Origin: a virus | Lineage: Duplodnaviria > Heunggongvirae > Uroviricota > Caudoviricetes | DNA: 64,000 bases | Virus record (IMG/VR): IMGVR_UViG_3300033273_000374 | Span: 1 to 64,000 of that record | Direction: 5' to 3' (one strand) | Shown here: one piece after another, positions 14,429-35,543 of the stretch | Layout: each line of letters begins with the position of its first letter | Position numbering within the stretch: the first letter of the stretch is position 1 | Notes under the pieces: generated by a model | Databases searched by the model: none | Seen by the model: the letters and a program-made list of their open reading frames with translations, nothing else | What the model was told of the DNA's origin: nothing | Position numbers and translations under genes: made by a program

Positions 14429-14457
14429 ATTGTACACTTATTTAGACGGTTTTGCAA
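14429..14457 (-). promoter_or_regulatory. sigma70-like promoter TTGCAA-N17-TACAAT upstream of queD
   Basis: -35 at 14452-14457, -10 at 14429-14434. An AAAAGGAG SD precedes the ATG at 14361. Confidence 0.5.
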
Positions 14458-15007
14458 GTTTTTTCTCAAGAATATCTGTTTTTACTGCTTGGAATGCCAT
14501 AACACTACGCATTTCTTTGCATCTACGCTGTGGACCTTTTCCAATGTGTGGAATGCTGCTATCAAACACTACCAACTTGCGAGGAACATACACACTGGCT
14601 CTTACTAAATCGTCAAAGTAGAAAACAGTTTCTCCGCCCCAATTGAGTTCCCAAGTTTTGTCTGTGTACAGCACACCAGTTATGCTTTCTCCTGCACTTG
14701 GCCAATCTGTGTGGATATCACCATCTAACCCAAATGTGTTTGCACTGGCCATGTTACGCACCATGGTGTAACTGTCATCGCAAAACTGCTCCATAAAACG
14801 ATTGCCAAGAGTCTGTACAATGTCAGGGGCACTCTCATGGTAGTCACGTTCTTTAAGATAATAAAAGCCTTGGAACCACTGTGGGTAATTGGGTTCAATT
14901 TTGTTGTCACTGACTTGACCAAACTGCCAGCGGTTTGCATACACTACATGAAAAAACAGTTCTTTTTGTTCTTCTTCTGTTATCCAGTCCATGTGTTCTT
15001 CAAGCAT
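14438..15007 (-). CDS. Fe(II)/2-oxoglutarate-dependent oxygenase-like protein
   Basis: HxD...H arrangement (DIHTDW ... GGETVFY ... IPHIGKG). Confidence 0.5.
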   Translation of the reverse strand: MLEEHMDWITEEEQKELFFHVVYANRWQFGQVSDNKIEPNYPQWFQGFYYLKERDYHESAPDIVQTLGNRFMEQFCDDSYTMVRNMASANTFGLDGDIHTDWPSAGESITGVLYTDKTWELNWGGETVFYFDDLVRASVYVPRKLVVFDSSIPHIGKGPQRRCKEMRSVMAFQAVKTDILEKKLAKPSK

Positions 15008-15752
15008 CTGTTCTTACCCTTTTGTTGTATTCTACTGCTTCTTTGAGTATGCTCAATAGATTGGGATCATACTGTTTGGCTGTATACAATATTGCACTGG
15101 TATCTTTTGGTAAACAGTGTCCACCCCATCCACGCTCTTTGGTAACATAACTGTGGTCATCTAAAATGCGTTTATCAACACACAAGTGGTGCCTTACTTG
15201 ATCAAAATCTACACCTAATGTTTCACACAAGTCGTACATTTGGTTAAAGAAACTGACCTTTAGAGCAAGGAAACTATTTTCCATATACTTGATAACTATT
15301 GCTTCTCGCATGGTTGATTCATACGTTGCTAGAGCAGGCCATTTCTCTTTAAACATGTTGATCCAAAACTTTGTGTCGCCACCTCCCATTATAGCATACT
15401 CTTGATTTTCAAAATCCTCTATTGCTGTTGCGCCACGTAAGAACTCCGGCGAGAACGTTATTTTGTCACGATGCTTGAATTTTTCATAACATTCTAAACT
15501 AAAGGTGCTTTTAATTAGCACCGGAACATCCTCATCAACAGCTTCAAGTACTTCTATCACATTGTCGTAATTACACGATCCGTCTTCGCGTTCAGGTGTG
15601 CTTACTGCAATCACAACTGCGTCATATGCACTTTTGGTTGATGATAACGTGTGTCCTTGATCAGGATCAATTATGTCAAAATGATGCAGATCTTTGAATG
15701 CATGGAAAAATGCTTTACCTACGTACCCATAACCGTATAATCTTATCTTCAA
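15000..15752 (-). CDS. short (250 aa) UDP-glucose/GDP-mannose dehydrogenase-family protein
   Basis: N-terminal Rossmann GYGYVGKAF and catalytic-Cys motif GWGGHCLPKDT. Lacks the C-terminal UDP-binding domain length. Confidence 0.55.
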   Translation of the reverse strand: MKIRLYGYGYVGKAFFHAFKDLHHFDIIDPDQGHTLSSTKSAYDAVVIAVSTPEREDGSCNYDNVIEVLEAVDEDVPVLIKSTFSLECYEKFKHRDKITFSPEFLRGATAIEDFENQEYAIMGGGDTKFWINMFKEKWPALATYESTMREAIVIKYMENSFLALKVSFFNQMYDLCETLGVDFDQVRHHLCVDKRILDDHSYVTKERGWGGHCLPKDTSAILYTAKQYDPNLLSILKEAVEYNKRVRTDA

Positions 15753-15949
15753 GATCGGGCACCTTTCTTAGCACGTTCAAATTGTCTTTCACGCAACATT
15801 TCAATACCATCTAATTGTTCGTCTTCACTTAGATGTCTCCATCCTCGTATCTCTTCAGGTGTTCTACCACAACCTAAACAGTATCCGTCATCGCCTTGTG
15901 TGCATACTTGTATACACGGTGAATATTTTGCTTTGGGCATTACCACCAC
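15749..15949 (-). CDS. DUF1289-like small Cys-rich (putative Fe-S) protein
   Basis: SPCIQVC...GYCLGCGRTPEEIRGW pattern. Confidence 0.5.
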   Translation of the reverse strand: MVVMPKAKYSPCIQVCTQGDDGYCLGCGRTPEEIRGWRHLSEDEQLDGIEMLRERQFERAKKGARS

Positions 15950-16524
15950 TCCTCATATGGAAATACAACCCATGTGTCGTCTTCAGCTTTGTTAATTTCA
16001 ATGCTGGTATAATCTACATCAAATGGGCTTGCAATGTTATTTACTATACTTGCAAACCTTACACTATGATGCCAAACTTTTTTCCATTGTGGATCACTGG
16101 GCAAACAGTGTGCCTGCCAATCATCTTTTATCCACTGGAATGTTGCTCCGGTGTCATTGATATCGTCTAGTAATAAAATGTTTGGAGGGTCCTTTTTAAA
16201 ATGACCCATTGCTGGATCATAGTAATCATTTTGTTCATACCCAAATGCATCTGCTGCCATCCAAAGTGCATGTTCTGGGCTGTTTTCAGAGTCTCGCAAA
16301 CGTACATCAATTGTTTCCATGCGTATGCCTGTGTAATGACTCATCAGCACTGCTGGCACAAGCCCGCCACGTGTGATGCCTACAATGTAGTTGGGCGTCC
16401 AGTTATCCTTATACATTTGGCGCACAATATCATGCACACCTTTTTTGATTTGTTCATCTGTTAGATACAGTTTGTTAGTCATTGATTGTCTTCCCATGTG
16501 GTGCTGGTTTTCCATCTGGACCAA
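15940..16524 (-). CDS. type I purine phosphoribosyltransferase (HGPRT/XGPRT-like); likely start at MTNKLYL (16482)
   Basis: PRPP-binding motif ILLLDDINDTGATF. The upstream thioesterase stop at 16475 favours the internal ATG at 16480-16482. Confidence 0.7.
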   Translation of the reverse strand: MVQMENQHHMGRQSMTNKLYLTDEQIKKGVHDIVRQMYKDNWTPNYIVGITRGGLVPAVLMSHYTGIRMETIDVRLRDSENSPEHALWMAADAFGYEQNDYYDPAMGHFKKDPPNILLLDDINDTGATFQWIKDDWQAHCLPSDPQWKKVWHHSVRFASIVNNIASPFDVDYTSIEINKAEDDTWVVFPYEEWW

Positions 16525-16840
16525 GATTTACAAACGTTATTCTATCAACACTTGTAATGGTTTTTTCTGTGCGTTTGTTTCTTACATCACAACTGATAGT
16601 GATGCTTGTGTTACCAAACTCTACTACTTCCATGCCTATTTCAATAATATCGCCTCTGATAGCACTGTGTGCAAAGTCAATATTACTCATACTGCGTGTT
16701 ACCACCCTGTCATTGTCTAGTTGGCAACTACAATATATGTATGCTTCTTCGTCTATCCAGTCAAGCACACGACCACCAAACAGTGTTCCGTTACTGTTCA
16801 AGTCCTTGTGTGCTATCATTTTTCTTGTAAAGTATTTCAA
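16475..16840 (-). CDS. hotdog-fold acyl-CoA thioesterase (YbgC/YciA-like)
   Basis: HKDLNSNGTLFGGRVLDWIDEEA consensus of 4HBT-type thioesterases. Confidence 0.7.
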   Translation of the reverse strand: MKYFTRKMIAHKDLNSNGTLFGGRVLDWIDEEAYIYCSCQLDNDRVVTRSMSNIDFAHSAIRGDIIEIGMEVVEFGNTSITISCDVRNKRTEKTITSVDRITFVNLGPDGKPAPHGKTIND

Positions 16841-17024
16841 GTTCTTCCCTCAGTTGTTTCACTCTGTGTTCCATCCAATGAATAGAGGTGTGTATGTAAC
16901 CTGTGTCATGTGGACGCAAACAGGTCTTTGCATACTCTATCTCTTCTTGCAATGCAATAATTTTTGCTGGCTTACTAATCACTTTGATTTCTCTATGCTT
17001 ACCATTGGATTCATTTTCATCCAC
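16791..17024 (-). CDS. hypothetical protein (77 aa); its C-terminal half is repeated at 18282-18422
   Basis: ORF track plus the repeat comparison. Confidence 0.4.
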   Translation of the reverse strand: MDENESNGKHREIKVISKPAKIIALQEEIEYAKTCLRPHDTGYIHTSIHWMEHRVKQLREELEILYKKNDSTQGLEQ

Positions 17025-17110
17025 TCTTCATAATCCTCGTGTGGCATATAGTATGCAAGTACGACATGCCAAGCCTTCATGATTTCCTGCTCAAGATCAA
17101 GGCGTTTCAT
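16942..17110. repeat. repeat block copy 1 (R1 16942-17001, R2 17001-17059, R3 17066-17110), matching 18382-18441, 17864-17922 and 18241-18285
   Basis: Near-identical 45-60-bp segments read directly from the sequence. Confidence 0.8.
16979..17110 (-). CDS. 43-aa ORF, a chimera of the N-terminus of the 18043-18285 product and the C-terminus of the 17838-18068 product
   Basis: Hand translation: MKRLDLEQEIMKAWHVVLAYYMPHEDYEEWMKMNPMVSIEKSK. Not in the ORF track (below 60 aa). Confidence 0.3.
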   Translation of the reverse strand: MKRLDLEQEIMKAWHVVLAYYMPHEDYEEWMKMNPMVSIEKSK

Positions 17111-17522
17111 TTTTTTTCTTCACCATTTCTCCATCACGAACAACGTACCTATGAACTGGATGCATTCCAGATTTGATATATGCACGACCGCCGTCAATCA
17201 TATTACCGTTCTCAAACTGTTTATAATCGTGGCGATGAGCACTGTACTGTAGGTTGCCATCGTCATCTTCTACAAGACCAAACTCTGGTTGCTCGATACG
17301 ATCAGCATTAGTAATCATAAGATTGCCAGTAAACGGATTGTTATAGAGTCCAAAATAACGATTACCAAATCTTGGATGCGGAGTCTCTCTGTAAAAGATA
17401 TCCATTGCCTGTGCTTCGTCTCCTAATGCACTGGTACAGACATAGTTAATAGGAACACCATCTTTATTGCTGTAGTGTTCGCAAATCTTATCAGTATCAA
17501 ATTGTGGTTCGTGTTTAATCAT
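17097..17522 (-). CDS. hypothetical protein (141 aa)
   Basis: ORF track. Confidence 0.5.
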   Translation of the reverse strand: MIKHEPQFDTDKICEHYSNKDGVPINYVCTSALGDEAQAMDIFYRETPHPRFGNRYFGLYNNPFTGNLMITNADRIEQPEFGLVEDDDGNLQYSAHRHDYKQFENGNMIDGGRAYIKSGMHPVHRYVVRDGEMVKKKNETP

Positions 17523-17845: not shown

Positions 17846-18068
17846 CTTCTTTCACCATTGGATTCATTTTCATCCACTCTTCATAATCCTCATGCGGCAT
17901 ATAGTATGCAAGCACAGTTTGAATTGCCTTGAGCAACTCAAAGTCTGGCTCAAGAACATCATTTGAACAGTTAATCCTATCAAACTGATTATTCATATGA
18001 TAAGCATCTTTCAGCTCATCAATGACAACTTCATCGCAATCTTCAACTCTTAGTGAAATCGTTTTCAT
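17838..18068 (-). CDS. hypothetical acidic protein (76 aa)
   Basis: ORF track. Confidence 0.45.
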   Translation of the reverse strand: MKTISLRVEDCDEVVIDELKDAYHMNNQFDRINCSNDVLEPDFELLKAIQTVLAYYMPHEDYEEWMKMNPMVKEDD

Positions 18069-18285
18069 TTTGTTTCCTCATTGCATGGTATTCCTTGCAT
18101 AAATCTTCAAATATATTAAAGACCTTTTGGAATCTCATATTGTATATACTCTCCAGTCCAAGAAGGGCATTTGCAATATCATCGGTGGACATATCTGTTT
18201 CCATGACATTCTCATTGAGAATTTGAATGTCATCTATAACATGCCAAGCCTTCATAATCTCTTCTCCAAGATCAAGGTGTTTCAT
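18043..18285 (-). CDS. hypothetical protein (80 aa)
   Basis: ORF track. Confidence 0.45.
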   Translation of the reverse strand: MKHLDLGEEIMKAWHVIDDIQILNENVMETDMSTDDIANALLGLESIYNMRFQKVFNIFEDLCKEYHAMRKQNENDFTKS

Positions 18286-18422
18286 TCTTCCACTCCGTTT
18301 TCAATCTCATCCATCCAACTGATAGCAGTATGAATGTGTCCAGTATCGTGCGGTTGCAAACACGAACGAGCGTGTTCAATTTCTTCTTGCAATGCAATAA
18401 TTTTTGCTGGCTTACTAATCAC
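18282..18422 (-). CDS. 46-aa GTG-start ORF, paralogous to the C-terminal half of the 16791-17024 product
   Basis: Hand translation: VISKPAKIIALQEEIEHARSCLQPHDTGHIHTAISWMDEIENGVEE. Its stop overlaps the next ATG. Confidence 0.25.
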   Translation of the reverse strand: MISKPAKIIALQEEIEHARSCLQPHDTGHIHTAISWMDEIENGVEE

Positions 18423-18832
18423 TTTGATTTCTCTATGCTTAAATTGCCCCAAACCCAACATTCGGTGTCATAGTGTTCCCAACCATCTTCTTCCCAACCA
18501 TCGTAGTATTCTTCATCCCACAGGTCATCAAGTCGTTCTTGTTCTTCTTCACTCATGTCGTCTGGGTAGATAACATCATCGTATACGCCATCGTCTAGTG
18601 AATCTATTTCTACGCTTTCTACATTGTCGGGCCATTCATCGTAGATGTTACAAGCATCAGCACCTGGACCACTGTCAAATGAAAACTCTGGAGGCTCATC
18701 GTCTGTAGTGGTTACAGTCCATGCACCCCAACGCCAGCCGGTGATGCGACGGATAACCATGTCATCCTTTTGCCACATTTCGTGTTCTTCAACACTCTTT
18801 TTATTTTCTGTTTCAACAAACCATACAGCCAT
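18419..18832 (-). CDS. hypothetical highly acidic protein (137 aa)
   Basis: ORF track. Asp/Glu/Trp-rich. Confidence 0.5.
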   Translation of the reverse strand: MAVWFVETENKKSVEEHEMWQKDDMVIRRITGWRWGAWTVTTTDDEPPEFSFDSGPGADACNIYDEWPDNVESVEIDSLDDGVYDDVIYPDDMSEEEQERLDDLWDEEYYDGWEEDGWEHYDTECWVWGNLSIEKSK

Positions 18833-18845
18833 TGTCTTCTCCTAA

Positions 18846-21800
18846 CTAGAAGTTTAATTTTACACTAATACCAGCACGTTTTTCAATTTCTTTTTTCACA
18901 CCTGTTATGGTATCTCGTAGTTCTATAAATGCACCTACCTTGCCTTGCAGTCCTAACTTTGTAGCGAACTCGTCTACTTGTTTGATACCTGTTTTTGTAA
19001 TATCAAAATTGTAGTATGTGCCAAAATCAATTTCTCTGTTGCTGTTGCGGAAGTCTACTGTGCGCAATTCTGTGTTTACATTTCCGTCTAGTGTTCTGCC
19101 TGTTGGCACACGATATGTAAATTTTGCACTTTCAACTGTAACAGGTTGCGATATTGCAAAACCCAATGTGTGTCCGTCTGCAGGACCAAGTTCATAGCCA
19201 ACAGTAGCAGTTGAACTGATTACATCTTCTGCGTCAACTAACATGCTGTTGCTTTTATCAAAGTTTACACTGGTATATCCTAATCCAGCCTGTGCATAAA
19301 ACCCACCATAGCGATAGTTGTAGTTTGCATAAACTGTGGTGCTGTCTTTTGTTGTACCTAGTGTGCCTGAAAGACTGTTGCCTAAATAGTGTCCATCGCT
19401 CTTACCAAATCCAATTTCAATGTTGTTGTTTTCGTTGATGGACCACGGAAACGCACCATGCTGATCATGATTCATATAGCCTGCAAAGTAGTTTACTGCA
19501 CCCATTTGCTCTGCAACACTTGCAGTTCGTGTGTCAATGTCAGCACTAACCATGCTGCTCAAGTCAATGTAGAAGTCACGTTCAAAACTGTCAAGCACCA
19601 TTACATTTGTAAGTGCTGTAAGTTGTTGTGCTGCAACCCCAATGACATTAGCACCTCCAGATACAGTGCTTACTCCACCATCAGTACGTCCACTTGTTGG
19701 AATGCCTGTGGCGCCCACTGGGCGTGTAGCAGCATCCATGTCTAGTATGCCATGCCCATGCAAGTTCTCGTCGTACACATTGTCGCCGTAACTGTTAAGC
19801 ACTTCTTCTTTGGCAGTGACCAGCACCAACTGTACCAAGTGCTTGCCTTTCATGTGTGGCCACATTTGATGCAATATTGCAATAGCACCACTCACAACAG
19901 GTGCTGCCATACTGGTGCCTGTCATGTTGGTGTAGCCGCCACCTGACTTTGTGCTGTCTACCATGTAGCCATCTGCTAGTATGAAAAAGTCTTTTATCTG
20001 AGCAGCATCTTTACACACACCATCTACATAGGTTGCACACACTGTGCCTGCTTTGTTGCCATACTGGTTTCCTCTGTCATATGATCCAACAATGATCATT
20101 TGTCCATCAAGTATGAGATTACCGTTAGCATCGGTAGCAGTGGCCATTTGATTCATGCCTGCACTATAACTTGTGCCTGCATTGCCTGCAGCCTTTACCA
20201 ATACCATTTCGTTGCCTAGTGCTGCTTTCCAGTTAACTGCTTCGTTGACTGCACCATTGTAGCCATTGACACCATAGTACCAATGGTCACTGTGCCATAC
20301 ACCGTCACCATCTTGTACAAGACTGTTTTTAAAGTTGGTGTCAAGTCTAGTCTCTGCACTGACATTGATAGCAACTGCACCTAAATTTTTACCCCACTCT
20401 GCTGCTCTTTGTGCATTGAAGAAACTGAATGCATAACCATCAGCAACTTTTGCAATAGCAAGTTTAGCATCAAACGCTGCACCATGCATGCCTATGTCAT
20501 TCTTTTCTGCAGCAACGATACCTGCAACATGAGTGCCGTGATCACTTGCATTGCTAATACCACTACCAGTGTAGTCTATAGTGTGTGCAATGTTGTCATC
20601 TAAATCTATGTGTGATGTATCTGCACCTGTGTCAGCAACTACAACTAGACTGCCTTTACCCGTCCAGCCTCTACTGTAAGCAACATCAAAGTTACTTTGT
20701 AGCAAATGGTTGTTTCCAAGTCCTGTGGTTTTAAATACACTGTATTCATCTGTGCGATAGTGGTTACGATCTTCAACATAACCTGGTGTGCGTGTGCCCA
20801 TGTCAGGATGATCGTTGCCAATTACTTCTGTATCAGTTTCGTTCTCCGCATCAGTGCCAGCACTGAGTTCCTCACGCATTAGTTCAAGTTCTTCGTTGCG
20901 TTGGCTAGCAACTGGATACTTTGTTACAGGCTCTCTGTAACGCAATGATTGGTTTGTCAGTTCTGTTTCGGTAGTGCCGTCGCTGTAGGTTGTTATTGTG
21001 TAAGTATCTGTGGCATACACATGAGTGTGTATTTCGGGTGTAACAAATGTTATAATACGATATGTAACAAGCCAATTGCCTTCTACACGTTCCTCAACTG
21101 CAGAGCTTTGTATCTCTTCTGGCAAGTATTCTTTATCCAAGCGCAACCAATATTCCGCTTCTGTGCGTGTTTCTTGGTTTACAATTGTAATAGCTTCTTC
21201 TGTAGTTTCTTCCGCAACAGGTTCAGAATCAACAACTTCTTCTACTGGTTGGTCAACAACTTCTTCTACTTCTTCTACAACTGGCTCAGTTGTTTCTTCC
21301 TCTTCAACTGGTTCTACATTTTCATCAATTGTTTCATCTACCGGTTGTGGTTCAACTTCTTCAACAATAGGGTCACTTATTTCTACATCAGGATCAGTAG
21401 TTTCTTCTACAACTTCTACTTCAGTATCAGGCAATTCCTCTACAATAGGATCCGTTAATTCTTCTACAACTGGATCAGTTTCTTCTACAACTTCTTCTGG
21501 TTGTTCCTCTACCTCAAGATCTACTGTTTCTGCTGTTGGATCTGTTTCCTCTACTTCGGTTTGGTATAGTTGTACTTGTGTATTCTCATGGAAGTCATCT
21601 ATAGAAAAATTTTCATCTGCGCCAATGTCGGCATGATCAATATACCCATTACTTTCCATAAGAACATATTCTTTTATATAATGATATTCTTCGGATGCAT
21701 CATCGTACTGTCCAGTTTCAACTACTCTAGACCACCATTCTTCTTTGTTATCATAATATAGTTTTTTGTAGCCTTTGAGAATATTGTAAGCACTATCAAG

Positions 21801-25269: not shown

Positions 25270-25298
25270 ATTGTAGACGTATTTAGACCAAATGTCAA
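25270..25298 (-). promoter_or_regulatory. sigma70-like promoter TTGACA-N17-TACAAT upstream of folE
   Basis: -35 at 25293-25298, -10 at 25270-25275. An AGGAG SD precedes the ATG at 25185. Confidence 0.55.
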
Positions 25299-26633: not shown

Positions 26634-27151
26634 TCGTGTCCTGTTACCTGTAGAGTGTATCTTGGTTCAAGTCCAATGTTAGCAGCCATGTGTTCAACAT
26701 CTCCTCTCCACCAAATGTAATCGCCGCGCTTCCAACTAACAATCGGATTGCCTGCTATTTCAAAATAATGTCCTGATTTCCAATTTTCTAAGAACACTAT
26801 AATACGTTGAATTTGATTTACTTCTACATCAAATAGTTGTCTGTATTTTTTATAAGTGTCTCTGTGTGTGGGTAAAACTACGCCTGTAGGCATTCTATAA
26901 AAACTAGTGCCTGTATTTTTAAGTCCGTATATGTTTTTCAACATTTGCACTAGATCGTTTGTATAACCTGTTTGTGGTTTACGCATATCACATAGATCAC
27001 CTACAAAAGGCGGAGTGTAGCCTTGTACTGTCCACGTATCTATATCTTGGGAATTATTAAAGGGCTCAGACTGATAATCAAGGTCTATGTGACTATCGTC
27101 CCAAAAAGGATCTATATAGCCTATGTGCCAGTTACTATCGTGTGTTGCCAT
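26630..27151 (-). CDS. cupin/Fe-oxygenase-like protein, paralog 2 (173 aa)
   Basis: PTHRDT ... VEHMAANIG. Shares the WK(P/S)GH(F/Y)..(D/E) block with paralog 1. Confidence 0.35.
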   Translation of the reverse strand: MATHDSNWHIGYIDPFWDDSHIDLDYQSEPFNNSQDIDTWTVQGYTPPFVGDLCDMRKPQTGYTNDLVQMLKNIYGLKNTGTSFYRMPTGVVLPTHRDTYKKYRQLFDVEVNQIQRIIVFLENWKSGHYFEIAGNPIVSWKRGDYIWWRGDVEHMAANIGLEPRYTLQVTGHE

Positions 27152-28418
27152 AATGTATTACCTTACTTGCTTCGCTGTTAAATTTACGCCATGGATCTAC
27201 CACAATGCTATCCATTGGTATTGTACAATACAAACTGTCTGTGTTACTGTCTTGGTGCATGTATTTGTAGGTTGTGCTTGCACTATGTGCTAATAACATT
27301 ACACAAGATTGTTTAGGTTCATTATTGTCTCCAGTCAATGGATCAATGTATGTTACACTTTTGCCCATTTCCTCAACATAATGACCGATCAATAAACTAT
27401 AACTTCCATCAATGTATTCTACACCAGGCTTGTATGCTTTGCCATGTATATAAATTTCCATTGCATTTTCGTCTGCAAGTTTTACTAACAGTTTAGCAAG
27501 GTTGTGTGCTTGCTTTTCTCTTGCATTCATTATAGCGTCAAATAAATCATATCCTAAATCTAATTCTTGTGCCATGTAGCGCAAGGCAATATTGTCACGC
27601 GGATGGCAAGCACCACCATCACCCATCCCTGCAGTCATATACTGCGGGCCCATGATCCGTTTGGTTGACTCTGCTAGTGCCTGGGTAACCACATCAACAT
27701 TGATATTGCCCTGCTTTACTGCCACATCCTGTATCATGTTTGCCAGTCCAATTTTGGTACTGATAAATGTGTTGTAAAACACTTTGATACATTCGCATTC
27801 GTCCCAAGTACCAACAACATACCTGGGATCATTTTCAATTACTGTTTTATAAAAGTCTACTAATAGTTGTGCATCACCTGTGGTAGTGCCATCTTCAGTA
27901 CCAACCATTACCATTTCAGGATTTAAAAAGTCCCATGCAACACTGCCCATAGCAATCAAGTATGGGTTGTATGCAAAACGTGTGTTTGTTATCAGTGGAA
28001 CAAATTCTCTGCGAACTGTGCCCGGAAGCACTGTAGAGATAAGCACAATCATTTGTGCATTGTGCATGTGTTCGTTACACTCACGCAATACTTGTTTTAC
28101 AATGTCGTAGTTAAAATCTTTAGGTTCAAGATGTGCAGTAGGCACACGACCATCATAACTTGCTTCATGCGGAGTTGGCACTGCTACAAAAACAATCTTA
28201 GAAAACTCAACTGCTTGTTTGATAGTGTCTACGATGTTTACATATTCACTTGAAACTGGTGCAACATCGTAACCTTTGACACTGTGTCCTTTTTTTGCCA
28301 TTTCCTCTGCACATGGCATTCCAAGTTTTCCGCAACCTATAAAAGCAATATTCATTGTGATGTGTACCATTTGTATGCAGTACGGATTATACTGTCTAAA
28401 TCGTGATTTGCTTTCCAT
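27135..28418 (-). CDS. ugd: UDP-glucose 6-dehydrogenase-family nucleotide-sugar dehydrogenase; probable start at MNIAFIG (28355)
   Basis: Rossmann IAFIGCGKLG and catalytic Cys motif GGACHPRD. Full three-domain length. Confidence 0.8.
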   Translation of the reverse strand: MESKSRFRQYNPYCIQMVHITMNIAFIGCGKLGMPCAEEMAKKGHSVKGYDVAPVSSEYVNIVDTIKQAVEFSKIVFVAVPTPHEASYDGRVPTAHLEPKDFNYDIVKQVLRECNEHMHNAQMIVLISTVLPGTVRREFVPLITNTRFAYNPYLIAMGSVAWDFLNPEMVMVGTEDGTTTGDAQLLVDFYKTVIENDPRYVVGTWDECECIKVFYNTFISTKIGLANMIQDVAVKQGNINVDVVTQALAESTKRIMGPQYMTAGMGDGGACHPRDNIALRYMAQELDLGYDLFDAIMNAREKQAHNLAKLLVKLADENAMEIYIHGKAYKPGVEYIDGSYSLLIGHYVEEMGKSVTYIDPLTGDNNEPKQSCVMLLAHSASTTYKYMHQDSNTDSLYCTIPMDSIVVDPWRKFNSEASKVIHYGNTR

Positions 28419-29299
28419 TTTAGGATGGTGTTGGCTGCAACAGTATCTGCTACAAGTGTACCAGGATCTCCTGGTCTAGGATCACCAAATTTTAGATCTA
28501 CTGAGAGAGGAGTAACACGGTTAATACTGTCAATAATCTCGAGATTGCTGTAGCCTCTTTCGCCACCTAAATTGAAAGTGTGTGCACCATTAGTCGTTTC
28601 TAACAGTTCAATACTATTTAGCACACCACGTGCCACATCCTCAACATGCACATAATCACGCACACAAGTTCCATCTGGCGTATCAAAGTTGTTACCAAAC
28701 AGTGTAAAATCTTTGCCAGCCATGGTGCGCTCTATGGCTTTTGCAATGATGTGAGTTGCATTGGGTTCTTGACCAAACTCGCCCTCAGGATCTGCACCTG
28801 CAACATTAAAGAAACGCAAACTTACACTGTTGAAATTGTATGCATGTGCGTAATCATTGAGTATGATTTCCATCATGCGTTTACTCCAACCATATGGGTT
28901 GCAAGGAGTATGAGGCATGTTTTCTGCACAAACATCTTCTTCTGGTTCACCGTAACAGGCTGCACTACTAGCAAACACAAATTTATCAATGCCTTTGTTG
29001 CGCACACTATCCAAGAGGTCAAGTGTTTGTGCAATGTTGTTTTGATAGTAAGGTGCAGGATCTATCACACTTGGTCCAACAAGACTGGTAGCACCTATGT
29101 GTACAACTGCATCTACACCATTAAACATATCATCACTGATATCACCATATGAGGTAAGTTGTACTTTGTCAAGGTAATTGTGTTTAATGTGTCTACGGTC
29201 AATTGCCACAACTTCGTACAGCAGACTTTTTAACATTTTGCAGACAGCAGAGCCAATGTATCCACCGGCTCCTGTTACCATTACTCTCTGTGCTGTCAT
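28352..29299 (-). CDS. galE: NAD-dependent nucleotide-sugar 4-epimerase (GalE-like SDR)
   Basis: VTGAGGYIGS Rossmann motif, the S...YxxxK triad (YGWSKRMME) and extended-SDR length. Confidence 0.8.
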   Translation of the reverse strand: MTAQRVMVTGAGGYIGSAVCKMLKSLLYEVVAIDRRHIKHNYLDKVQLTSYGDISDDMFNGVDAVVHIGATSLVGPSVIDPAPYYQNNIAQTLDLLDSVRNKGIDKFVFASSAACYGEPEEDVCAENMPHTPCNPYGWSKRMMEIILNDYAHAYNFNSVSLRFFNVAGADPEGEFGQEPNATHIIAKAIERTMAGKDFTLFGNNFDTPDGTCVRDYVHVEDVARGVLNSIELLETTNGAHTFNLGGERGYSNLEIIDSINRVTPLSVDLKFGDPRPGDPGTLVADTVAANTILKWKANHDLDSIIRTAYKWYTSQ

Positions 29300-30489
29300 G
29301 CTGTTGGATCCTTGTTGTATTTTGATTCTGCTACATGGTCTCTGTAACGATTACCACTGCGCTTCCATTTTTCACCTTTGCCTTCCATGATATCAAGCAT
29401 ACGATCAATGGTACCATCAGTCCAGTCACTGATCTTGCCCATGTTGTGACTGGGTGCTTCAAGTGCATTTAACACTTTGTCCATAGCATCACTCTTGTTC
29501 CATGGCACATACAATCTAGTGTAATCGTTTGCAAATGTTTCTGGAAAACTGCGATATGCAGGATATACAACATTACATCCAAGTGCATCTGCTTCGCTAA
29601 CAGTGTTGCTGACCCAGTCTTGTAACGCACAGTTAAACATAACCTTACTGTCGTTTACAATGTTGTAGTAGTCATTTTTCTGCAGATCTTTGTAGATTGT
29701 TAGCAGTCCGTGCTTTTCCATTTCTAAAGCACGATCCAAATAACGTTGATTGTTACTGCGTAATGGACCGCCACTGAGTACTGCACACTCAATGTTTGGA
29801 TTTACATTGCGTATCATCTGGATCAAGTCCATGTAGAAGTCTGGCTGTTTCTCTTGATCAAAACGTGCTGCAAATACAATTCTGTCTGCACGTTCACTCC
29901 AAGGCTTGATGTTGTTTCCAACACGCCCTTGCACTTCTGCCTTGCCAAAACTCAATCCACTGATGTTGTAGATAGGTGCAGTCCAATTTGCAATACGCAT
30001 GTGTGCTACCATTTCTTCGTTAGTAGCAAGAATATTTACATTAGGAATCTCGTTACACATCTGCTCATACAAGCTCATCCACTTGCTCATACCCCATACA
30101 TGCACAAAGTCATCTGGATCAACTGCTTGTGCTAAACAGCGCAAGTAGATTGTAGGACGTTGTGTGTATGGAATCTGACACATGATGTAAGGCAAACTTT
30201 CAATGCCAGGTTGGAACATGTCTTCAAAGAAAACAACATCCTGTCCAGAACATTCACCGTTGCGCATCATTTGTACAAGATTCATAAGTTGACTCATGCC
30301 AAAGTATGAACGTCCATGTGCGTCAAGTACTTGTCCTACGCTGATGCTTTTGGTGTTGTCAATGGTTTCACCAGGCACTACAACATAGTCTATGCCGCGA
30401 CGTTTAAAGACTTCTTCACTCCACTGTTGTAATTGTAGTGTGTAGCGTCCTTCGTACGGCTCAAGCCCCATGTAAAATAGTTTACGCAT
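29296..30489 (-). CDS. GT-B fold glycosyltransferase (GT4-like)
   Basis: 397 aa. C-terminal E-x7-E-like region and FAARFDQEKQP resemble the GT4 donor-binding region. No unique motif. Confidence 0.5.
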   Translation of the reverse strand: MRKLFYMGLEPYEGRYTLQLQQWSEEVFKRRGIDYVVVPGETIDNTKSISVGQVLDAHGRSYFGMSQLMNLVQMMRNGECSGQDVVFFEDMFQPGIESLPYIMCQIPYTQRPTIYLRCLAQAVDPDDFVHVWGMSKWMSLYEQMCNEIPNVNILATNEEMVAHMRIANWTAPIYNISGLSFGKAEVQGRVGNNIKPWSERADRIVFAARFDQEKQPDFYMDLIQMIRNVNPNIECAVLSGGPLRSNNQRYLDRALEMEKHGLLTIYKDLQKNDYYNIVNDSKVMFNCALQDWVSNTVSEADALGCNVVYPAYRSFPETFANDYTRLYVPWNKSDAMDKVLNALEAPSHNMGKISDWTDGTIDRMLDIMEGKGEKWKRSGNRYRDHVAESKYNKDPTA

Positions 30490-30722: not shown

Positions 30723-30732
30723 TTTCTTTCCT

Positions 30733-31254
30733 TTAGTTTTTTACGTTATAGCGAACAATGCAGCCGTTTTCATTGTCTTCGCTAACTTCAATGTGAATTT
30801 CACGGCTAGGATATTTGTTGTTGATGTGTTCAAACATTTCGTCTGCAATCATTTCACAACTCTTATAGTCCAGTGTCATTACATCTTCACTGAACAATCT
30901 CTGTAACCAACGTGAGAACTGAATAAATTCAATTTCTCTATCGTTGTGGAACACTTCAATTGATACCTTGAAGTGAAACATGTGTCTGTGTGGATAACCG
31001 AGAAAACTTACGTCATCCCAATCACCAGTTGCTAACTTTGGATCATCCAAGGCAGCAGGATACTTGTGTATACCTTCTTTCTGGAATGTGACCCAAATCA
31101 TACGTTTGCTTGTTGACTGTGTGTGCTGTTGTACAGCCGCTTGTCTCATCATGTCTAGTGTTGCATTATCAATATCTTCAGACATATCACCAATCCCATA
31201 TCTGTGCGTAGTAACCTTTACCATTGGTGTCGCCGCCATCGTTATAGACTTCAC
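30733..31254 (-). CDS. hypothetical protein, possibly a second T-fold/PTPS-like protein
   Basis: GYPHRHMFHFKVSIEV resembles the QueD/PTPS H-x-H..F.V motif. Weak. Confidence 0.3.
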   Translation of the reverse strand: MKSITMAATPMVKVTTHRYGIGDMSEDIDNATLDMMRQAAVQQHTQSTSKRMIWVTFQKEGIHKYPAALDDPKLATGDWDDVSFLGYPHRHMFHFKVSIEVFHNDREIEFIQFSRWLQRLFSEDVMTLDYKSCEMIADEMFEHINNKYPSREIHIEVSEDNENGCIVRYNVKN

Positions 31255-31891
31255 CGTCTTTGTAGCCTACTAACTCAAGTACATTGTCACTGTTTGGTAT
31301 TTGTGTAGTATAAAACTCTAATGCAGTGATGTCAAGTTCTTCTCCATCAGTTTCAATTGGGTATACACCAAACGCACCTTTTTCACTGCTACAACCAAAG
31401 AAAACATAAGGAGTTGGAATCTCGCCGTTGTCCATAGGCTTTGGTTCGCCTTCCTCACCTTCGGTGTCATCCTCATCATAGAAACCATTTGGATATAGTA
31501 CTTCGTCAAGATCAAGTACATGTTCGGTAAGTTTTGGATTGTACTTTTGTTTGAACTCATTCCACTCCATGGCGCTTACTAGATCGTTAAGAATTTCTGC
31601 ACCATAATCATAACCAGATACTTCTTCAATGCTGATGTATGCACTGTCTGAATTTGCTCCATACACATGTTCGATATCATCTAATTCGTTCCAATGTCCT
31701 AACCAGCGTGGGTCTTCGTCATCGTAGATAGGATTATCATCATTTTCTTCGTATGGATCCCACATAGCATGTGCAATAATCTGTTCTTCTTCAAAAGGCA
31801 TCCAGAAGTCGTATTGCTCTTCTGTGAGACGTCCTAACACAATTTCACTGCCATAGCCGTGAATTGTTACTTTAAAGAATCTTTTAGACAT
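31187..31891 (-). CDS. hypothetical acidic protein (234 aa)
   Basis: ORF track. Confidence 0.5.
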   Translation of the reverse strand: MSKRFFKVTIHGYGSEIVLGRLTEEQYDFWMPFEEEQIIAHAMWDPYEENDDNPIYDDEDPRWLGHWNELDDIEHVYGANSDSAYISIEEVSGYDYGAEILNDLVSAMEWNEFKQKYNPKLTEHVLDLDEVLYPNGFYDEDDTEGEEGEPKPMDNGEIPTPYVFFGCSSEKGAFGVYPIETDGEELDITALEFYTTQIPNSDNVLELVGYKDGEVYNDGGDTNGKGYYAQIWDW

Positions 31892-32471
31892 TGCTATCTC
31901 TTTTCTGTTTTTCTAGCATATAGTCACTGTAACCTAGTTTTTTGATGCGTTTCTCAAACTGGATATCGCTTTCGATTACCTTGTCTTGTGTGTATTTAGA
32001 CCACGGCGTAAACACCTTAGTATTTTGTAAGTCGTGTAAACGATGTGTCCACACACCTGCATTTGTTGCACTAAAGTCTTTGTCATCTACTTTGATACAG
32101 GCATTGTAGTTGAACAATTTGATGTATGGCACTTTTACACTGATCATGCTGATAAAATTATCATGTTCATCATAACAACCTTCAAGCACCCATTCACTGT
32201 GAATCACATCAAAGTCCAATGTTACCATGAAGCTTCTGTATAACTTGTTATTTAGAACAGCACGAATAAGAATATCCCAGTCATCGCTGGGTTCAAAACT
32301 TTGATTCGCGCCTAAGTAGATATGATCGCATTTGTGTTTTTGTGCAGTGCGCACAATCTCATCTGCGTCTTGTATGCCCACAACAAACAGTGTGCGCATG
32401 CCATATGCAGGAGTATGCTCAATTTCGTTGCCTACAAAGAAAGCAACACCGTCGTGCCCATCACGTTGCAT
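31884..32471 (-). CDS. hypothetical protein (195 aa)
   Basis: ORF track. Confidence 0.5.
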   Translation of the reverse strand: MQRDGHDGVAFFVGNEIEHTPAYGMRTLFVVGIQDADEIVRTAQKHKCDHIYLGANQSFEPSDDWDILIRAVLNNKLYRSFMVTLDFDVIHSEWVLEGCYDEHDNFISMISVKVPYIKLFNYNACIKVDDKDFSATNAGVWTHRLHDLQNTKVFTPWSKYTQDKVIESDIQFEKRIKKLGYSDYMLEKQKRDSNV

Positions 32472-32713: not shown

Positions 32714-32714
32714 T

Positions 32715-34190
32715 TCACACCTCTGTGAATAAGTTGTTAAACTGTGTAGTGGCGTTCTGGGTTTTCTTGCCCTTAAAGCCTCTGGTTCCTATTATGTCCA
32801 TAAAGTATATACTATTACCAGCAATTATGTCAAGTGATTTTTCCTTGGTTGGAGCACTAAAAATATCATTTACAATGTCACGGAAACGTTGTGTGTTTGA
32901 CCATAACATAGCGGGCATAACACCAGCATCATACTGTCTGTTTGCTTCTTGCACTGCGTTGATGTGCGTCCAAACATTATGACCCATTAACAGTGCATAA
33001 CTGAAACTGTCCCATGAAGTTTTACCTTCCTTGCCAATCTTGTTCAGCATGCCTGGACCATAATGACAGATGTCCATCATGCGCATGTGTTCACTGATTG
33101 GACTGTCCTCCCATATGGTGTGTATGCCATCTGCTGTTACACCATCTTTGTACAGTCTTGTATCGTTAAAATACTTTTTGTCATCAGCAGTTGGGTTCAT
33201 GCGATATACCCACTTCTGATCATGTGGTGTAACCACATTGGTGTACACTTGCCCATTTGCCGTAGCAAGGAAAGGACTAGCACAATCAAAACTGATTGTT
33301 AGTGTAGGATTGTAGTTTGCTCTTACTGCACGTTGTACATCTGTGAGCAGTGTTGCCCACTCTAGTTTACTGGTGCCTAAGAAGTGCATCCAGTCATGCT
33401 TGCCGCTTTGTAGCAGTCCATCGTAGTGCAAGTGTACAATGCGTTCCAGTATGAGATGAATGTCACACATGTTCTGACCACCCATGCCCCATCCATCAAA
33501 GTGGTTGGTTGGATACTGTGTATCATCACAGTAGTGTTTTACGTGATCATACCATTCGTGTGCATTTTGATGATTGTCACCTTGTAACACATTGAGGAAT
33601 CGTGTTCCACCATTTTCTTTGCCTTTGCGATTGGCAATAAAATATTCGTTGTTGAACTTGGTTGCTTCTACTGCTTCGTGCACCTGTGTTATGCAACTGT
33701 TGCGACTTGCTTTCTCATCATGCACAACCCAACTTGGTATATCAAGTGCCATGCTGTAATTAAAGTAACTGTCCAGCCAAGTCAACACTTGTTTACGTTT
33801 TTTATTAGCATTAGGACAGCCACTGCCTGCACGCCAGTCACCTTCCCAAACACCCTTAGCAATTTGGAATCCTCCACTGTCACCAACCAAGATGTTGTCT
33901 GGTCTGTTCATGCCTTTGGTGTCACGCACCATGTCTTCTTTTGGACTGTGTCGTGTTGTGTCTAAGTCAGCATGCCCTGCACTGTACAACGACCATTTGT
34001 ATTGAAACACACCTTTGTCACTGAGCCAGTTCATTGCTTCAAGTGCGGTGCCTTGCAAGTGCTTTGGAATACGATTTTGATCTACATACTGATCAAAACG
34101 TTGCTTGCCAACATAGGTGCTGTAAAAACTGCTCAATGCTGGCAGGAATACTGCATAATCAGATTGTGATTTTGTTAGATTCTTGTTCAT
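32715..34190 (-). CDS. tRNA-guanine transglycosylase (TGT)-family protein, DpdA-like candidate DNA 7-deazaguanine transglycosylase
   Basis: NILVGDSGGFQIAKG matches the TGT substrate-binding DSGGFQ motif. 491 aa, so longer than canonical TGT/DpdA. Confidence 0.6.
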   Translation of the reverse strand: MNKNLTKSQSDYAVFLPALSSFYSTYVGKQRFDQYVDQNRIPKHLQGTALEAMNWLSDKGVFQYKWSLYSAGHADLDTTRHSPKEDMVRDTKGMNRPDNILVGDSGGFQIAKGVWEGDWRAGSGCPNANKKRKQVLTWLDSYFNYSMALDIPSWVVHDEKASRNSCITQVHEAVEATKFNNEYFIANRKGKENGGTRFLNVLQGDNHQNAHEWYDHVKHYCDDTQYPTNHFDGWGMGGQNMCDIHLILERIVHLHYDGLLQSGKHDWMHFLGTSKLEWATLLTDVQRAVRANYNPTLTISFDCASPFLATANGQVYTNVVTPHDQKWVYRMNPTADDKKYFNDTRLYKDGVTADGIHTIWEDSPISEHMRMMDICHYGPGMLNKIGKEGKTSWDSFSYALLMGHNVWTHINAVQEANRQYDAGVMPAMLWSNTQRFRDIVNDIFSAPTKEKSLDIIAGNSIYFMDIIGTRGFKGKKTQNATTQFNNLFTEV

Positions 34191-34815
34191 TTATTTGTTG
34201 TAATAACCAATAGGTTTGGTGGTCATAACTTTCATAGTAGTATTTTACATTGTGTAGATCAACATTGTCAATAATCCAGTCTTGCCACTGTTTTCTTATG
34301 TTGTTTACAGGATCTTTGGTGTAGTTGATTGGATCATGTAACCATTTTTCTGTTGGCATGGTTGTGTCTGTCCATCTACATATCTTCTCCCATACACTGT
34401 GTGTATCATCATGTTTGAAGAAAGTAATGCTGTTGTGATCAAACGGGGTATAAAAATACTGTTGTACCTCTGTGTGATCGTCAAATACAACTCTGTCTTG
34501 TATCAGTTTCAGAACTGGTTCACATTTCATATCTTCGTCATGAGTATGATATGTGTTAAAGTATTCACTGATACCTGCTATCCAGCGTTTTATTGGATCT
34601 CGCAGTAAACATATTACATGTACATTCTTTTTAATGTGTTCGTTGTGTATTACAGTCCAACCTCTTTCACCTTCAAGCCAGGAACGCCAGTAACTGCTAC
34701 TACATTTTGGAATACATAGAATTGCAAGCTGACCACAAGGACTTAATATGTGTTGTCCTCGTGGATGCCCTTTGTGTTCCCACCAATTCCAATTCTGGAT
34801 ATCTTCAAAGTTCAT
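34159..34815 (-). CDS. sulfotransferase-fold protein (tentative)
   Basis: 5'-PSB-like IPKCSSSYW and 3'-PB-like LLRDPIKRWIAGIS motifs. Confidence 0.4.
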   Translation of the reverse strand: MNFEDIQNWNWWEHKGHPRGQHILSPCGQLAILCIPKCSSSYWRSWLEGERGWTVIHNEHIKKNVHVICLLRDPIKRWIAGISEYFNTYHTHDEDMKCEPVLKLIQDRVVFDDHTEVQQYFYTPFDHNSITFFKHDDTHSVWEKICRWTDTTMPTEKWLHDPINYTKDPVNNIRKQWQDWIIDNVDLHNVKYYYESYDHQTYWLLQQINEQESNKITI

Positions 34816-35543
34816 TTGCTTTGTGCAGGAAGCAAGTAACGATAAACAGCAAGTCCACTGTCTACAGTGATTTCGCCTACACCGTCATCGCTGAACTTAA
34901 TGCGTGTTTCACCCGATAAGCCAAGGATTTTTGATACTTGTTCAACAGGCCATGCCCAAGCACGTTGTAGTTGTCCACCTACATCATGTTGGAACACAAA
35001 GTTACCAGCGTGTGTGCTTTGATCACCAAAGTAAAACTTGAGATCTGCACCATCTGTTTTAGCGATGAATGTTGTTTCGTCGCTGTTGGCACTGATCATA
35101 AACTTGAAACGTTGTACACTGGCAACACTTGGTTCAAAGTCAACACCCCATGGTACGCTTTTCATTGTAACACTTTTGAGTTTGTCATTGACAATTTCGC
35201 TAGCCATAAAGCGATAGTCGTTTACAAAGTCTCCGTTTGCATTTTCAAAGTGAATACCAACTGGCACAGTTGCACCATTGCGTTCTTGTGTGTTGATAGT
35301 TATGTTTGCATTTTCTTGGTACTCAGGTATCTTGAGGATGATGCTCAATTTGTCTAAGTTGGGCATACCAAACGTACCAATAAAGTCTGCTACAGGAGCA
35401 TGTGTTTCTGCTTGTAGAATAACACTACGATCTTCTGCAAGTCCTTCAATTTTTGTTGATTTGTCGTCACCTGTAACTTTAACTAGGTCAATAAAGCCAA
35501 GGTTGTGCGTGTGCTGAACAATGTCAAGTAAGTAATCTTTCAT
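34812..35543 (-). CDS. hypothetical protein (243 aa); sliding-clamp size and position but no recognisable similarity
   Basis: ORF track; adjacent to the polymerase region. Confidence 0.45.
   Translation of the reverse strand: MKDYLLDIVQHTHNLGFIDLVKVTGDDKSTKIEGLAEDRSVILQAETHAPVADFIGTFGMPNLDKLSIILKIPEYQENANITINTQERNGATVPVGIHFENANGDFVNDYRFMASEIVNDKLKSVTMKSVPWGVDFEPSVASVQRFKFMISANSDETTFIAKTDGADLKFYFGDQSTHAGNFVFQHDVGGQLQRAWAWPVEQVSKILGLSGETRIKFSDDGVGEITVDSGLAVYRYLLPAQSK

Follow-up and report, generated by a model that had tools for sequence, protein, structure and literature searches.

The question raised by this locus is what a 7-deazaguanine gene island makes when enzymes of sugar and amine chemistry lie between its members. 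The island is found in the IMG/VR virus record IMGVR_UViG_3300033273_000374 (Duplodnaviria; Heunggongvirae; Uroviricota; Caudoviricetes), of which positions 1 to 64000 (64 kb, hereafter the window) were analysed. In a first-pass annotation the enzymes interleaved with the que and dpdA genes between 14438 and 35543 were regarded as foreign to every described phage deazaguanine pathway, and it was proposed that together they build a new hypermodified base or, alternatively, a host-surface glycan. The observation was largely right and the interpretation partly right. With a probability of about 0.68 the region represents the backbone of a replication module in an uncultured jumbo myovirus, carrying a QueC-less, DpdL-type 7-deazaguanine DNA-modification system together with a mosaic of nucleotide-sugar and amino-group tailoring insertions.

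All substantial open reading frames (ORFs) between about 9 and 39 kb are located on the minus strand and follow each other head to tail. Since QueD and QueE lie outside the start at 14438 assumed before, the true span of the island is about 11.1-34.2 kb. The genes of the deazaguanine pathway are:

11120-12013, minus strand: QueE, 7-carboxy-7-deazaguanine (CDG) synthase (PHROG 2076 'QueE-like radical SAM', E=4e-53; weak Pfam Radical_SAM match)
13882-14361, minus strand: QueD/PTPS, 6-carboxytetrahydropterin (CPH4) synthase (Pfam PTPS, E=1.2e-13)
22801-23586, minus strand: YhhQ/Vut_1 transporter of the queuosine-precursor importer family (Pfam Vut_1, 4.3e-20)
24505-25185, minus strand: FolE, GTP cyclohydrolase I (Pfam GTP_cyclohydroI, 3.1e-62)
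30733-31254, minus strand: DpdL, a QueD paralog and predicted CDG decarboxylase (signature and tblastn)
32715-34190, minus strand: DpdA-like DNA-guanine transglycosylase, diverged within the tRNA-guanine transglycosylase (TGT) superfamily, 491 aa (motifs, fold, profile and context)

FolE, QueD and QueE produce CDG in the queuosine pathway. Their interleaving with other enzymes is as described before, FolE and YhhQ included. QueE homologs with 71-89 % identity occupy the same backbone position in IMG/VR loci, and YhhQ homologs exist in the que cluster of Vibrio phage 2.275.O and beside FolE in nine IMG/VR loci. The FolE of the window shares only about 31 % identity with its positional counterpart in the closest relatives (L086-L088), where the other genes of the block are mostly 72-93 % identical, and 61-65 % with the FolE of BUCT-ZZ01 and ACP17, which suggests that folE was replaced by recombination.

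DpdL was overlooked in the first pass. It is defined by the signature LxxxHRHxF, which replaces the QueD motif CxxxHGH (PMC10516641). The ORF 30733-31254 reads FLGYPHRHMF, that is L-GYP-HRH-M-F, and has no Pfam PTPS match; in tblastn it is related to DpdL of ACP17 (54 %, 3e-36), CGPG_00067 of phiST (29 %, 6e-6) and the homologs of PA5oct (60 %) and Phosso (64 %). Among 80 IMG/VR loci that were compared around DpdA, out of more than 593, DpdL was found in 73. Neither QueC nor QueF is detectable in the 64-kb window. The only protein with an SGGxDS/PP-loop motif (SGGYDS; 54132-55244, 370 aa) was rejected as a QueC candidate, as it matches neither the QueC family nor any Pfam domain; it could be an ATP-pyrophosphatase-type enzyme.

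Since FolE, QueD, QueE, DpdL and DpdA are present and QueC is not, the island is, as far as sequence families can tell, the described DpdL-type route to 2'-deoxy-7-deazaguanine (dDG) rather than an undescribed pathway, contrary to the view that nothing here fits a published one. In the published dDG systems FolE, QueD, QueE, a DpdL with LxxxHRHxF and DpdA are likewise found beside DNA polymerase, and QueC is missing; DpdL is proposed to decarboxylate CDG to 7-deazaguanine and DpdA then to insert this base into DNA, both as predictions (PMC10516641). The modification itself was measured only in the phiST group, and DpdA plus DpdL of ACP17 or phiST yielded no dDG in Escherichia coli, so that unknown additional enzymes were suspected by the authors (PMC10516641). 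ACP17 shares further genes with the window, as shown below. PhiST differs: its DpdA3 of 259 aa has no detectable sequence match to the 491-aa DpdA of the window, and a glycosyltransferase of the kind described below is missing.

The transglycosylase is the most divergent of these proteins. Its AlphaFold2 model (pLDDT 82, pTM 0.87) has only two PDB matches below 1e-3 in Foldseek, bacterial TGT 6yry (3.3e-7, probability 1.0) and ArcTGT 1iq8 (2.3e-4). The motifs DSGGFQ (D104), HFLGTS and SFDCASP (D302) are present, the first and the last being invariant in 46 homologs; DSGGFQ and FDCxxP are the catalytic aspartate motifs of bacterial TGT. Aligned in hhalign with DpdA of BUDD, ACP17 and BUCT-ZZ01 (the BUDD protein being annotated as queuine tRNA-ribosyltransferase), the family profile reaches 77 % probability (E 2e-5), and their DSGGLQ and SYDSTT fall onto the two motifs. 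More than 7,395 protein clusters belong to this family, which was found in more than 593 IMG/VR loci; none of the 120 listed homologs has a Pfam domain. Its gene neighbours DpdL, FolE, QueD and QueE in the 80 loci; in Vibrio phage 2.275.O one hypothetical ORF comes after the homolog, and then QueF, YhhQ, QueC, a Gat-like gene and FolE. From fold, motifs and gene context we infer that ORF 32715-34190 is a DpdA which would exchange guanine for a deazaguanine base in DNA.

The setting of these genes is a replication module. The best relatives of the family B DNA polymerase (PolB) are those of the jumbo myoviruses Phosso (51 %), Atu_ph07 (48 %), Vibrio 2.275.O (43 %) and Rak2-like phages (42 %), which places the window among this group. 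A megablast search of the 21-kb region against GenBank phages gave zero matches, so there is no close GenBank relative. The 80 IMG/VR loci, PA5oct and Phosso have a backbone order in common: PolB, a clamp-like gene, DpdA, the gene g31884, DpdL, g30498 and a GT-B glycosyltransferase, followed in some loci by a short-chain dehydrogenase (SDR)/GalE-type gene and/or a phosphoribosyltransferase (PRTase), then FolE, sometimes QueD, QueE, g10664 and a 5'-3' exonuclease. Between 39 and 9 kb the window retains this backbone, into which about 15 extra genes are inserted. The genes of the module besides those listed above are:

34812-35543, minus strand: backbone gene between PolB and DpdA (PHROG 12062, function unknown; present in 79 of the 80 loci)
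31884-32471, minus strand: g31884, conserved 195-aa module protein of unknown fold family (co-occurrence)
29296-30489, minus strand: GT4-like GT-B glycosyltransferase (Glycos_transf_1, 5.7e-7, 29.7 bits against a cutoff of 26.4)
15940-16524, minus strand: xanthine/guanine-type PRTase, a conserved part of the module (Pfam Pribosyltran, 5e-10; best NCBIfam family xanthine PRTase, 9e-12)

The label 'sliding-clamp-like' for 34812-35543 derives only from the annotation of the Phosso homolog. GT-B and the type-I purine PRTase had both been named correctly in the first pass; for the glycosyltransferase of GT-A type also listed there, no ORF in 14438-35543 gave a match, and a weak Anp1-like match was found only outside, at 51202-51918.

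GT-B is the candidate link between sugar chemistry and the deazaguanine pathway. Its profile matches in the PDB only the C-terminal domains of GT4 enzymes (WbaZ-1, WlaC, GlgM; E 0.008-0.03), and for the N-terminal domain no relative was found in Pfam or PDB. This domain is distinctive and acidic with invariant E10, R15, Y16, T17, D90, D127 and E142; in the donor domain R209, K214 and E299 are invariant, and a motif Q/E-x8-E is conserved. At the upstream acidic donor position the PA5oct subtype has E (LQETLGIxxxEA), whereas the subtype of the window reads Q-D (LQDWVSNTVSEA). An EX7E-type motif is the donor-binding motif of such glycosyltransferases.

GT-B-anchored comparisons comprised 16 GenBank phage records and Phosso, 15 GTDB loci from a scan of 185,579 genomes, and 79 new IMG/VR loci. 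All of the 16 phage records also have DpdL, within about 2 kb where inspected, and in Phosso a divergent GT-B adjoins DpdL though DpdA is located about 170 kb away. Fourteen of the GTDB loci stem from metagenome-assembled genomes, probably from phage contigs, and one from an isolate assembly; 14 of the 15 have DpdL as a neighbour, and the fifteenth is a 2.7-kb fragment starting at GT-B. DpdL lies within 2.6 kb of GT-B in 76 of the 79 IMG/VR loci, and in the other three GT-B is at the contig end. Hence GT-B neighbours DpdL in every locus with neighbouring sequence present (more than 100 loci from several phage lineages), also where gene orders differ (ACP17, BUDD, BUCT-ZZ01, Phosso, L117). The linkage is one-way, as phiST, RHph_I1_18 and Ahp1 carry DpdL and no GT-B nearby. 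In Vibrio 2.275.O a DpdA of this family is accompanied by QueC and QueF, and DpdL and GT-B are both missing, so that GT-B tracks DpdL and not DpdA. No GT-B homolog of cellular lipopolysaccharide (LPS) or capsule synthesis was detected among the 185,579 GTDB genomes. A link between DpdL and GT-B was not found in the literature searched, in which DpdL is mentioned only by Hutinet 2023 (PMC10516641), and neither a glycosyltransferase nor a PRTase is named there. The single isolate locus (L105, Methylobacterium sp. EM32, NZ_JBEXZS010000019.1) is a 60-kb contig with DpdA, DpdL and GT-B; it could represent a prophage, a plasmid-like phage or a co-cultured phage and may be a tractable host-phage pair.

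Two more genes track DpdL. The first, g31884, is present in 76 of the 80 loci, and all 13 GenBank records with this gene are phages with DpdL and GT-B; in ACP17 GT-B (ASD50404) is located between dpdA and dpdL and a g31884-like ORF (ASD50402) just upstream of dpdA. PDB sequence and profile searches with g31884 gave nothing usable. Apparent fusions of g31884 with DpdL were rejected as Rosetta-stone evidence, as the long ORFs contain an in-frame stop. The second, the PRTase, occurs in 54 of the 79 GT-B-anchored IMG/VR loci and inside the compact que operon of BUCT-ZZ01; only eight GenBank phage records match, six of them DpdL phages, and the dDG phages phiST, phi13:1 and phi19:2 have homologs. 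GT-B, g31884 and the PRTase form the tier of genes that tracks DpdL across lineages.

The closest known systems include that of the Pseudomonas jumbo phage PA5oct (Wroclawvirus), in which PolB, the clamp-like gene, DpdA (gp316), GT-B (gp317), DpdL (gp318), QueE, RNaseH and an AAA gene are found. The identities to the window are 33 % for DpdA, 60 % for DpdL and about 49 % for PolB; its GT-B belongs to the divergent subtype (22 % identical) and the g31884 homolog is located about 26 kb away. The DNA of PA5oct resists restriction, digests suggest that it contains a modified G, and it is targeted by END nucleases (PMC12191111). The PA5oct locus differs from the window in lacking nucleotide-sugar dehydrogenase, cupin, pyridoxal-phosphate (PLP) enzyme-like, amidinotransferase, sulfotransferase-like, S8 protease and YhhQ genes.

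The extra genes, most of them noted in the first pass, are the following:

28352-29299, minus strand: GalE, UDP-hexose 4-epimerase, downstream of GT-B (TIGR01179 equivalog, 298 bits, cutoff 262)
27135-28418, minus strand: nucleotide-sugar 6-dehydrogenase of the Ugd family (Pfam N-terminal and central domains about 4e-17; TIGR03026 2.9e-48)
26630-27151 and 26157-26633, minus strand: two cupin/Asp-Arg-hydroxylase-like proteins (Pfam Asp_Arg_Hydrox, 1e-3 and 3e-4, respectively)
25295-26173, minus strand: short aminotransferase-like (PLP) protein (NCBIfam valine-pyruvate transaminase, 1.7e-6; SMSK motif)
23599-24474, minus strand: amidinotransferase of the AGAT/StrB1 family, 291 aa (PDB phmmer StrB1 1bwd, E=2.8e-46)
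18846-22136, minus strand: S8 subtilase, 1096 aa, secreted or a lipoprotein (Peptidase_S8, 1.2e-30; N-terminal lipobox-like LAAC)
16475-16840, minus strand: hotdog (4HBT) thioesterase (Pfam 4HBT, 1.7e-14)
15000-15752, minus strand: truncated nucleotide-sugar dehydrogenase, 250 aa (UDPG_MGDP_dh central domain, 1e-24; partial N domain, no C-terminal domain)
14438-15007, minus strand: FlmC-like 2-oxoglutarate (2OG)-Fe(II) oxygenase (NCBIfam FlmC family, 6.7e-16, below cutoff; Pfam 2OG-FeII_Oxy_3, 1.6e-4)

The amidinotransferase, the thioesterase, the epimerase and both Ugd-family dehydrogenases, the second of them truncated, are what they had been called. The oxygenase-like and PLP-enzyme-like assignments were confirmed weakly, at the scores given.

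The amidinotransferase further matches HsvA (5e-26), SxtG and AGAT (both 1e-19) in PDB phmmer searches; it aligns with StrB1 in two stretches (residues 3-116 and 130-290), its GGGHHC, part of the GGGHHCC noted earlier, lying on the catalytic GGGFHC, with FDAANV and HIDST conserved. Both halves and the catalytic Cys are therefore represented, though the protein is shorter than StrB1, AGAT and HsvA (291 aa vs 348-423) and, unlike them, has a cupin/2OG-type protein as its usual partner. No Pfam match was obtained at E<=0.01, and an exact-sequence lookup found none on record. The gene follows folE in L086, L088, L106 and L110. A pair of cupin and amidinotransferase genes, the cupin directly upstream, exists also in a cluster of cyanophage S-SCSM2R with glycosyltransferase, radical SAM and 2OG genes, and beside SpeD in IMG/VR contig L089, in both cases with no que genes nearby. 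S-SCSM2R is absent from the complete match lists for DpdL, this DpdA family, GT-B and the PRTase, and the 19.6 kb around its amidinotransferase contain no annotated que gene. In phage CP220 the amidinotransferase is clustered with genes for radical SAM proteins and with two that encode nucleotide-diphospho-sugar-transferase domains; QueD lies 11 kb away.

GalE follows GT-B in 53 of the 80 DpdA-anchored loci, and homologs of the complete Ugd (61-75 % identical) lie after the GT-B position in L086, L088, L106 and L118. Homologs of the PLP-like protein were found among the compared loci in L088 (54 % identical) and L009 (39 %), and it gave no usable PDB sequence or profile match. The oxygenase keeps its position upstream of QueD in L111, where a homolog of the S8 subtilase lies upstream of PRTase, oxygenase and QueD. 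This protease contains long acidic repeats of the type EETxPVVEE, and its long C-terminal part matches no family; it is probably unrelated to DNA modification. For the thioesterase no homolog exists near DpdA in the compared relatives. In the 80 DpdA-anchored loci the amidinotransferase occurs three times, Ugd three times, the cupins and the PLP-like protein once each, and thioesterase, 2OG oxygenase and YhhQ not at all; the 79 GT-B-anchored loci contain no amidinotransferase, PLP-like protein, thioesterase or S8 protease.

Two more tiers can be distinguished. GalE, a Sulfotransfer_2-like gene and g30498, as well as the block of S8 protease, PRTase, oxygenase, QueD and a paralog described below, are conserved within the clade only; Ugd, cupins, PLP-like protein, amidinotransferase, YhhQ, thioesterase and a DUF1289 gene are confined to a sublineage or to the window. 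Most of the extra enzymes flagged before are lineage-specific add-ons which are not generally linked to DpdL. Co-variation with dpdA, proposed in the first pass as a check, thus holds for GT-B (with an SDR/GalE-type gene nearby), the PRTase and g31884, and not for the remaining accessory genes, among them the S8 protease, the DUF1289 gene and the paralog pair described below, which most relatives lack.

Three proteins had been described as sharing a sulfotransferase-like loop for 3'-phosphoadenosine-5'-phosphosulfate (PAPS), and this is supported for one of them:

34159-34815, minus strand: Sulfotransfer_2-like protein (11 of 21 homologs match Pfam Sulfotransfer_2 PF03567, best 9.3e-7)
12072-12914 and 13028-13882, minus strand: two tandem paralogs of an orphan family (43 % identical, C-termini near-identical)

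In the first family IPKxxST and RDPxxRW are invariant, the protein of the window itself has no Pfam match and the family no PDB match; the gene is present in 34 of the 80 relatives, and GenBank phages gave no match. The reading of all three as homologous sulfotransferases was rejected, since hhalign of the tandem paralogs against the Sulfotransfer_2-like family gave a probability of 1 %. None of the 38 clusters of their family has a Pfam domain, and 28 members examined have no Pfam, NCBIfam or PDB match. An exact 56-nt direct repeat (11858-11913 and 12932-12987) and a second repeat (12029-12274 and 12985-13230) lie in this stretch, and the copy of the 56-nt repeat between the paralogs translates to CMNFGVDTKKDRWEQHKE, a remnant of the QueE N-terminus. 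The pair therefore arose from a tandem duplication of about 1 kb which carried the start of queE.

A possible sequence of events can be drawn from these families. FolE, QueD and QueE would convert GTP into CDG, in accordance with the chemistry of the queuosine pathway, and DpdL is predicted to decarboxylate it to 7-deazaguanine. The TGT-fold DpdA-like enzyme would then swap guanine in phage DNA for the deazaguanine base. In its simplest role the PRTase, which resembles xanthine-guanine phosphoribosyltransferase (XGPRT), would recycle the released guanine to GMP and hence to GTP feeding FolE, and YhhQ may import deazaguanine precursors. GT-B and g31884 would be additional components of the DpdL branch, with GalE supplying GT-B. 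The amidinotransferase with the cupins, the PLP-like protein, both Ugd proteins, the Sulfotransfer_2-like protein, the FlmC-like oxygenase, the thioesterase and the S8 protease would be sublineage insertions; they resemble a sugar or amine tailoring kit, which may feed GT-B or else build an unrelated glycan or metabolite.

Since GT-B is linked to DpdL across lineages, glycosylation tied to the deazaguanine pathway is a well-founded, live hypothesis. The most likely role of GT-B, at about even odds, would be to transfer a hexose onto a deazaguanine, whether as free base, as nucleotide or in DNA, and the product of GT-B phages may exceed plain dDG. Comparable reactions are known from other systems. 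The alpha- and beta-glucosyltransferases of T4 are phage DNA enzymes with GT-B fold which use a UDP-hexose donor and act on 5-hydroxymethylcytosine; unlike in that setting, no hydroxymethylase was found in the window. The mammalian QTMAN and QTGAL glycosylate queuosine in tRNA, not DNA, at the cyclopentenediol. In huimycin synthesis the nucleotide-sugar glycosyltransferase HuiG is coupled, genetically or functionally, to a 7-deazaguanine scaffold; its acceptor is a methylated preQ0 base and not DNA.

Several points weigh against the reading of the region as a DpdL-type modification module with tailoring insertions. The DpdA assignment is a distant fold match with TM-scores of 0.37-0.48; ORF 32715-34190 has neither a Pfam match (E<=0.01, including TGT PF01702) nor a PDB match (phmmer and profile), and no CxCxxC motif, CxCxxC...H being the zinc site of canonical TGT. 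Most supporting loci come from one large environmental clade and about six lineages are clearly independent, so that the counts overstate the number of independent events. The genome probably exceeds 300 kb, of which the window covers only 64 kb, so that the remainder could encode QueC, QueF or a pyrimidine hydroxymethylase. The amidinotransferase directly follows folE in at least five related contigs and may be linked to the island. Moreover, 7-deazaguanine offers no obvious oxygen nucleophile to a glycosyltransferase, and the base chemistry is known for no phage with DpdL and GT-B.

Among the other explanations, the best placed extends the proposed glycosylation: phages with DpdL, GT-B and g31884 would carry a glycosylated 7-deazaguanine whose sugar is tailored further in the sublineage of this virus by Ugd and the aminotransferase-like, amidinotransferase and sulfotransferase-like enzymes. 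In this complete form it is unlikely, yet a new hypermodified base is possible.

Less probable still is that the sugar enzymes, GT-B included, have a host-surface glycan or virion proteins as substrates instead of DNA and came to lie beside the que genes through an insertion-tolerant, block-inherited region. GalE, Ugd, a GT4-like donor domain, Sulfotransfer_2 and an FlmC-like oxygenase are indeed typical glycan-building types, the comparable S-SCSM2R cluster has no visible link to DNA modification, and a secreted S8 protease is part of the same block. For the accessory genes this is plausible. However, it does not fit GT-B, which is never found apart from DpdL, stands beside it even in the compact que operons of the small T4-like genomes of BUCT-ZZ01 and ACP17, stays with it in Phosso far from DpdA, is absent where DpdA pairs with QueC and QueF, and has no homolog in the cellular LPS or capsule loci of the genomes scanned.

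There is only a slim chance that, as first proposed, the whole enzyme set builds one new hypermodified deazaguanine, for example with a uronic, amino, amidino or sulfate sugar. GT-B, GalE, Ugd, both cupins, the PLP-like protein, FolE and the amidinotransferase are contiguous and co-oriented in the window; the arrangement in L086, a close relative, is GT-B, GalE, Ugd, cupin, FolE, amidinotransferase, and that in L106 is similar. GT-B is tied to DpdL, and amidinotransferase homologs exist in Campylobacter phages of the genus Firehammervirus, which make 2'-deoxy-7-amido-7-deazaguanosine (dADG). However, the tailoring genes are absent from most DpdA, DpdL and GT-B loci and from PA5oct, ACP17, BUDD and BUCT-ZZ01, and two of the three 'sulfotransferases' are unsupported. 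The occurrence of homologs apart from que genes had been named beforehand as part of what would refute the proposal, and the amidinotransferase-cupin pairs of S-SCSM2R and L089 point in this direction for those genes. The setting of the amidinotransferase in CP220, at a distance from QueD, also speaks against the proposal. The decoration of a single base by all accessory enzymes is thus not favoured by co-variation, and its glycosylation part, GT-B, stands as a hypothesis.

An equally improbable tubercidin-like nucleotide route, in which the PRTase would join CDG or 7-deazaguanine to phosphoribosyl pyrophosphate (PRPP), DpdL decarboxylate the product and PolB incorporate 7-deaza-(d)GTP, with the DpdA-like protein in a secondary or repair role, is suggested by tubercidin clusters that use CDG without QueC together with a PF00156 PRTase and a decarboxylase (bioRxiv 10.64898/2026.04.15.718813), by the wide conservation of the PRTase in the module and its homologs in the phiST group, and by the complete replacement of guanine in DpdA3 phages including phiST (PMC10516641), but is opposed by the best family of the PRTase, an ordinary xanthine/guanine PRTase fitting guanine recycling, by a TGT-fold enzyme with intact catalytic motifs in nearly every locus, by the published model of post-replicative exchange for all phage deazaguanines, and by ACP17 and BUDD, whose modules show no PRTase. 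The tubercidin clusters of Streptomyces differ also in having a UbiD-family decarboxylase instead of a QueD paralog and no transglycosylase, and their product is a free nucleoside antibiotic with no DNA target.

Some further features of the window lie within or beside the module. A block of small ORFs is duplicated with 80-95 % DNA identity (16870-17114, 17854-17915 and 18239-18441), and the ORFs 16791-17024 and 18282-18461 have the peptide HREIKVISKPAKIIALQEEIE in common, which suggests a local rearrangement or a small mobile unit. An Rv2179c-like 3'-5' exoribonuclease is encoded at 51873-52415; a homolog (30 % identical) directly follows GT-B in cyanophage BUCT-ZZ01 (L085, 13168-13689), and others are found near the module in four IMG/VR loci. 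The region 47288-50716 encodes a protein of 1142 aa that weakly matches cytidylyltransferase-like and GNAT acetyltransferase families, and 58754-61801 a ClpB-like chaperone of 751 aa, which has two AAA+ domains, and immediately after it a DnaJ with J domain and C-terminal domain. An N6/N4 DNA methyltransferase (3354-4349), a second potential DNA-modification activity, an SPFH/Band-7 protein (628-1551) and a tRNA-Ser(GCT) (50-141) are located near the start.

Deazaguanines shield phage DNA from restriction enzymes and, in vitro, from Cas9, and defence nucleases target such DNA. The DpdL branch is the least understood one, and the activity of DpdL was never reconstituted. Since GT-B and g31884 are found only in DpdL phages and both adjoin dpdA and dpdL in ACP17, they are concrete candidates for the enzymes missing from the failed dDG reconstitution. 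In addition, a very large DpdA-like family for which no Pfam model exists is common in environmental, mostly jumbo-phage-like contigs. A glycosylated 7-deazaguanine would, if true, be the first report of a sugar-bearing purine in the genome of a virus, and the group concerned would comprise this phage, PA5oct, ACP17 and BUCT-ZZ01 together with hundreds of mostly jumbo-phage-like contigs of uncultured origin. As the module is carried by the cultured phages PA5oct, ACP17, BUCT-ZZ01, Xanthomonas phages BUDD and X1, and Phosso, the presence of a sugar on guanine is directly testable by nucleoside mass spectrometry.

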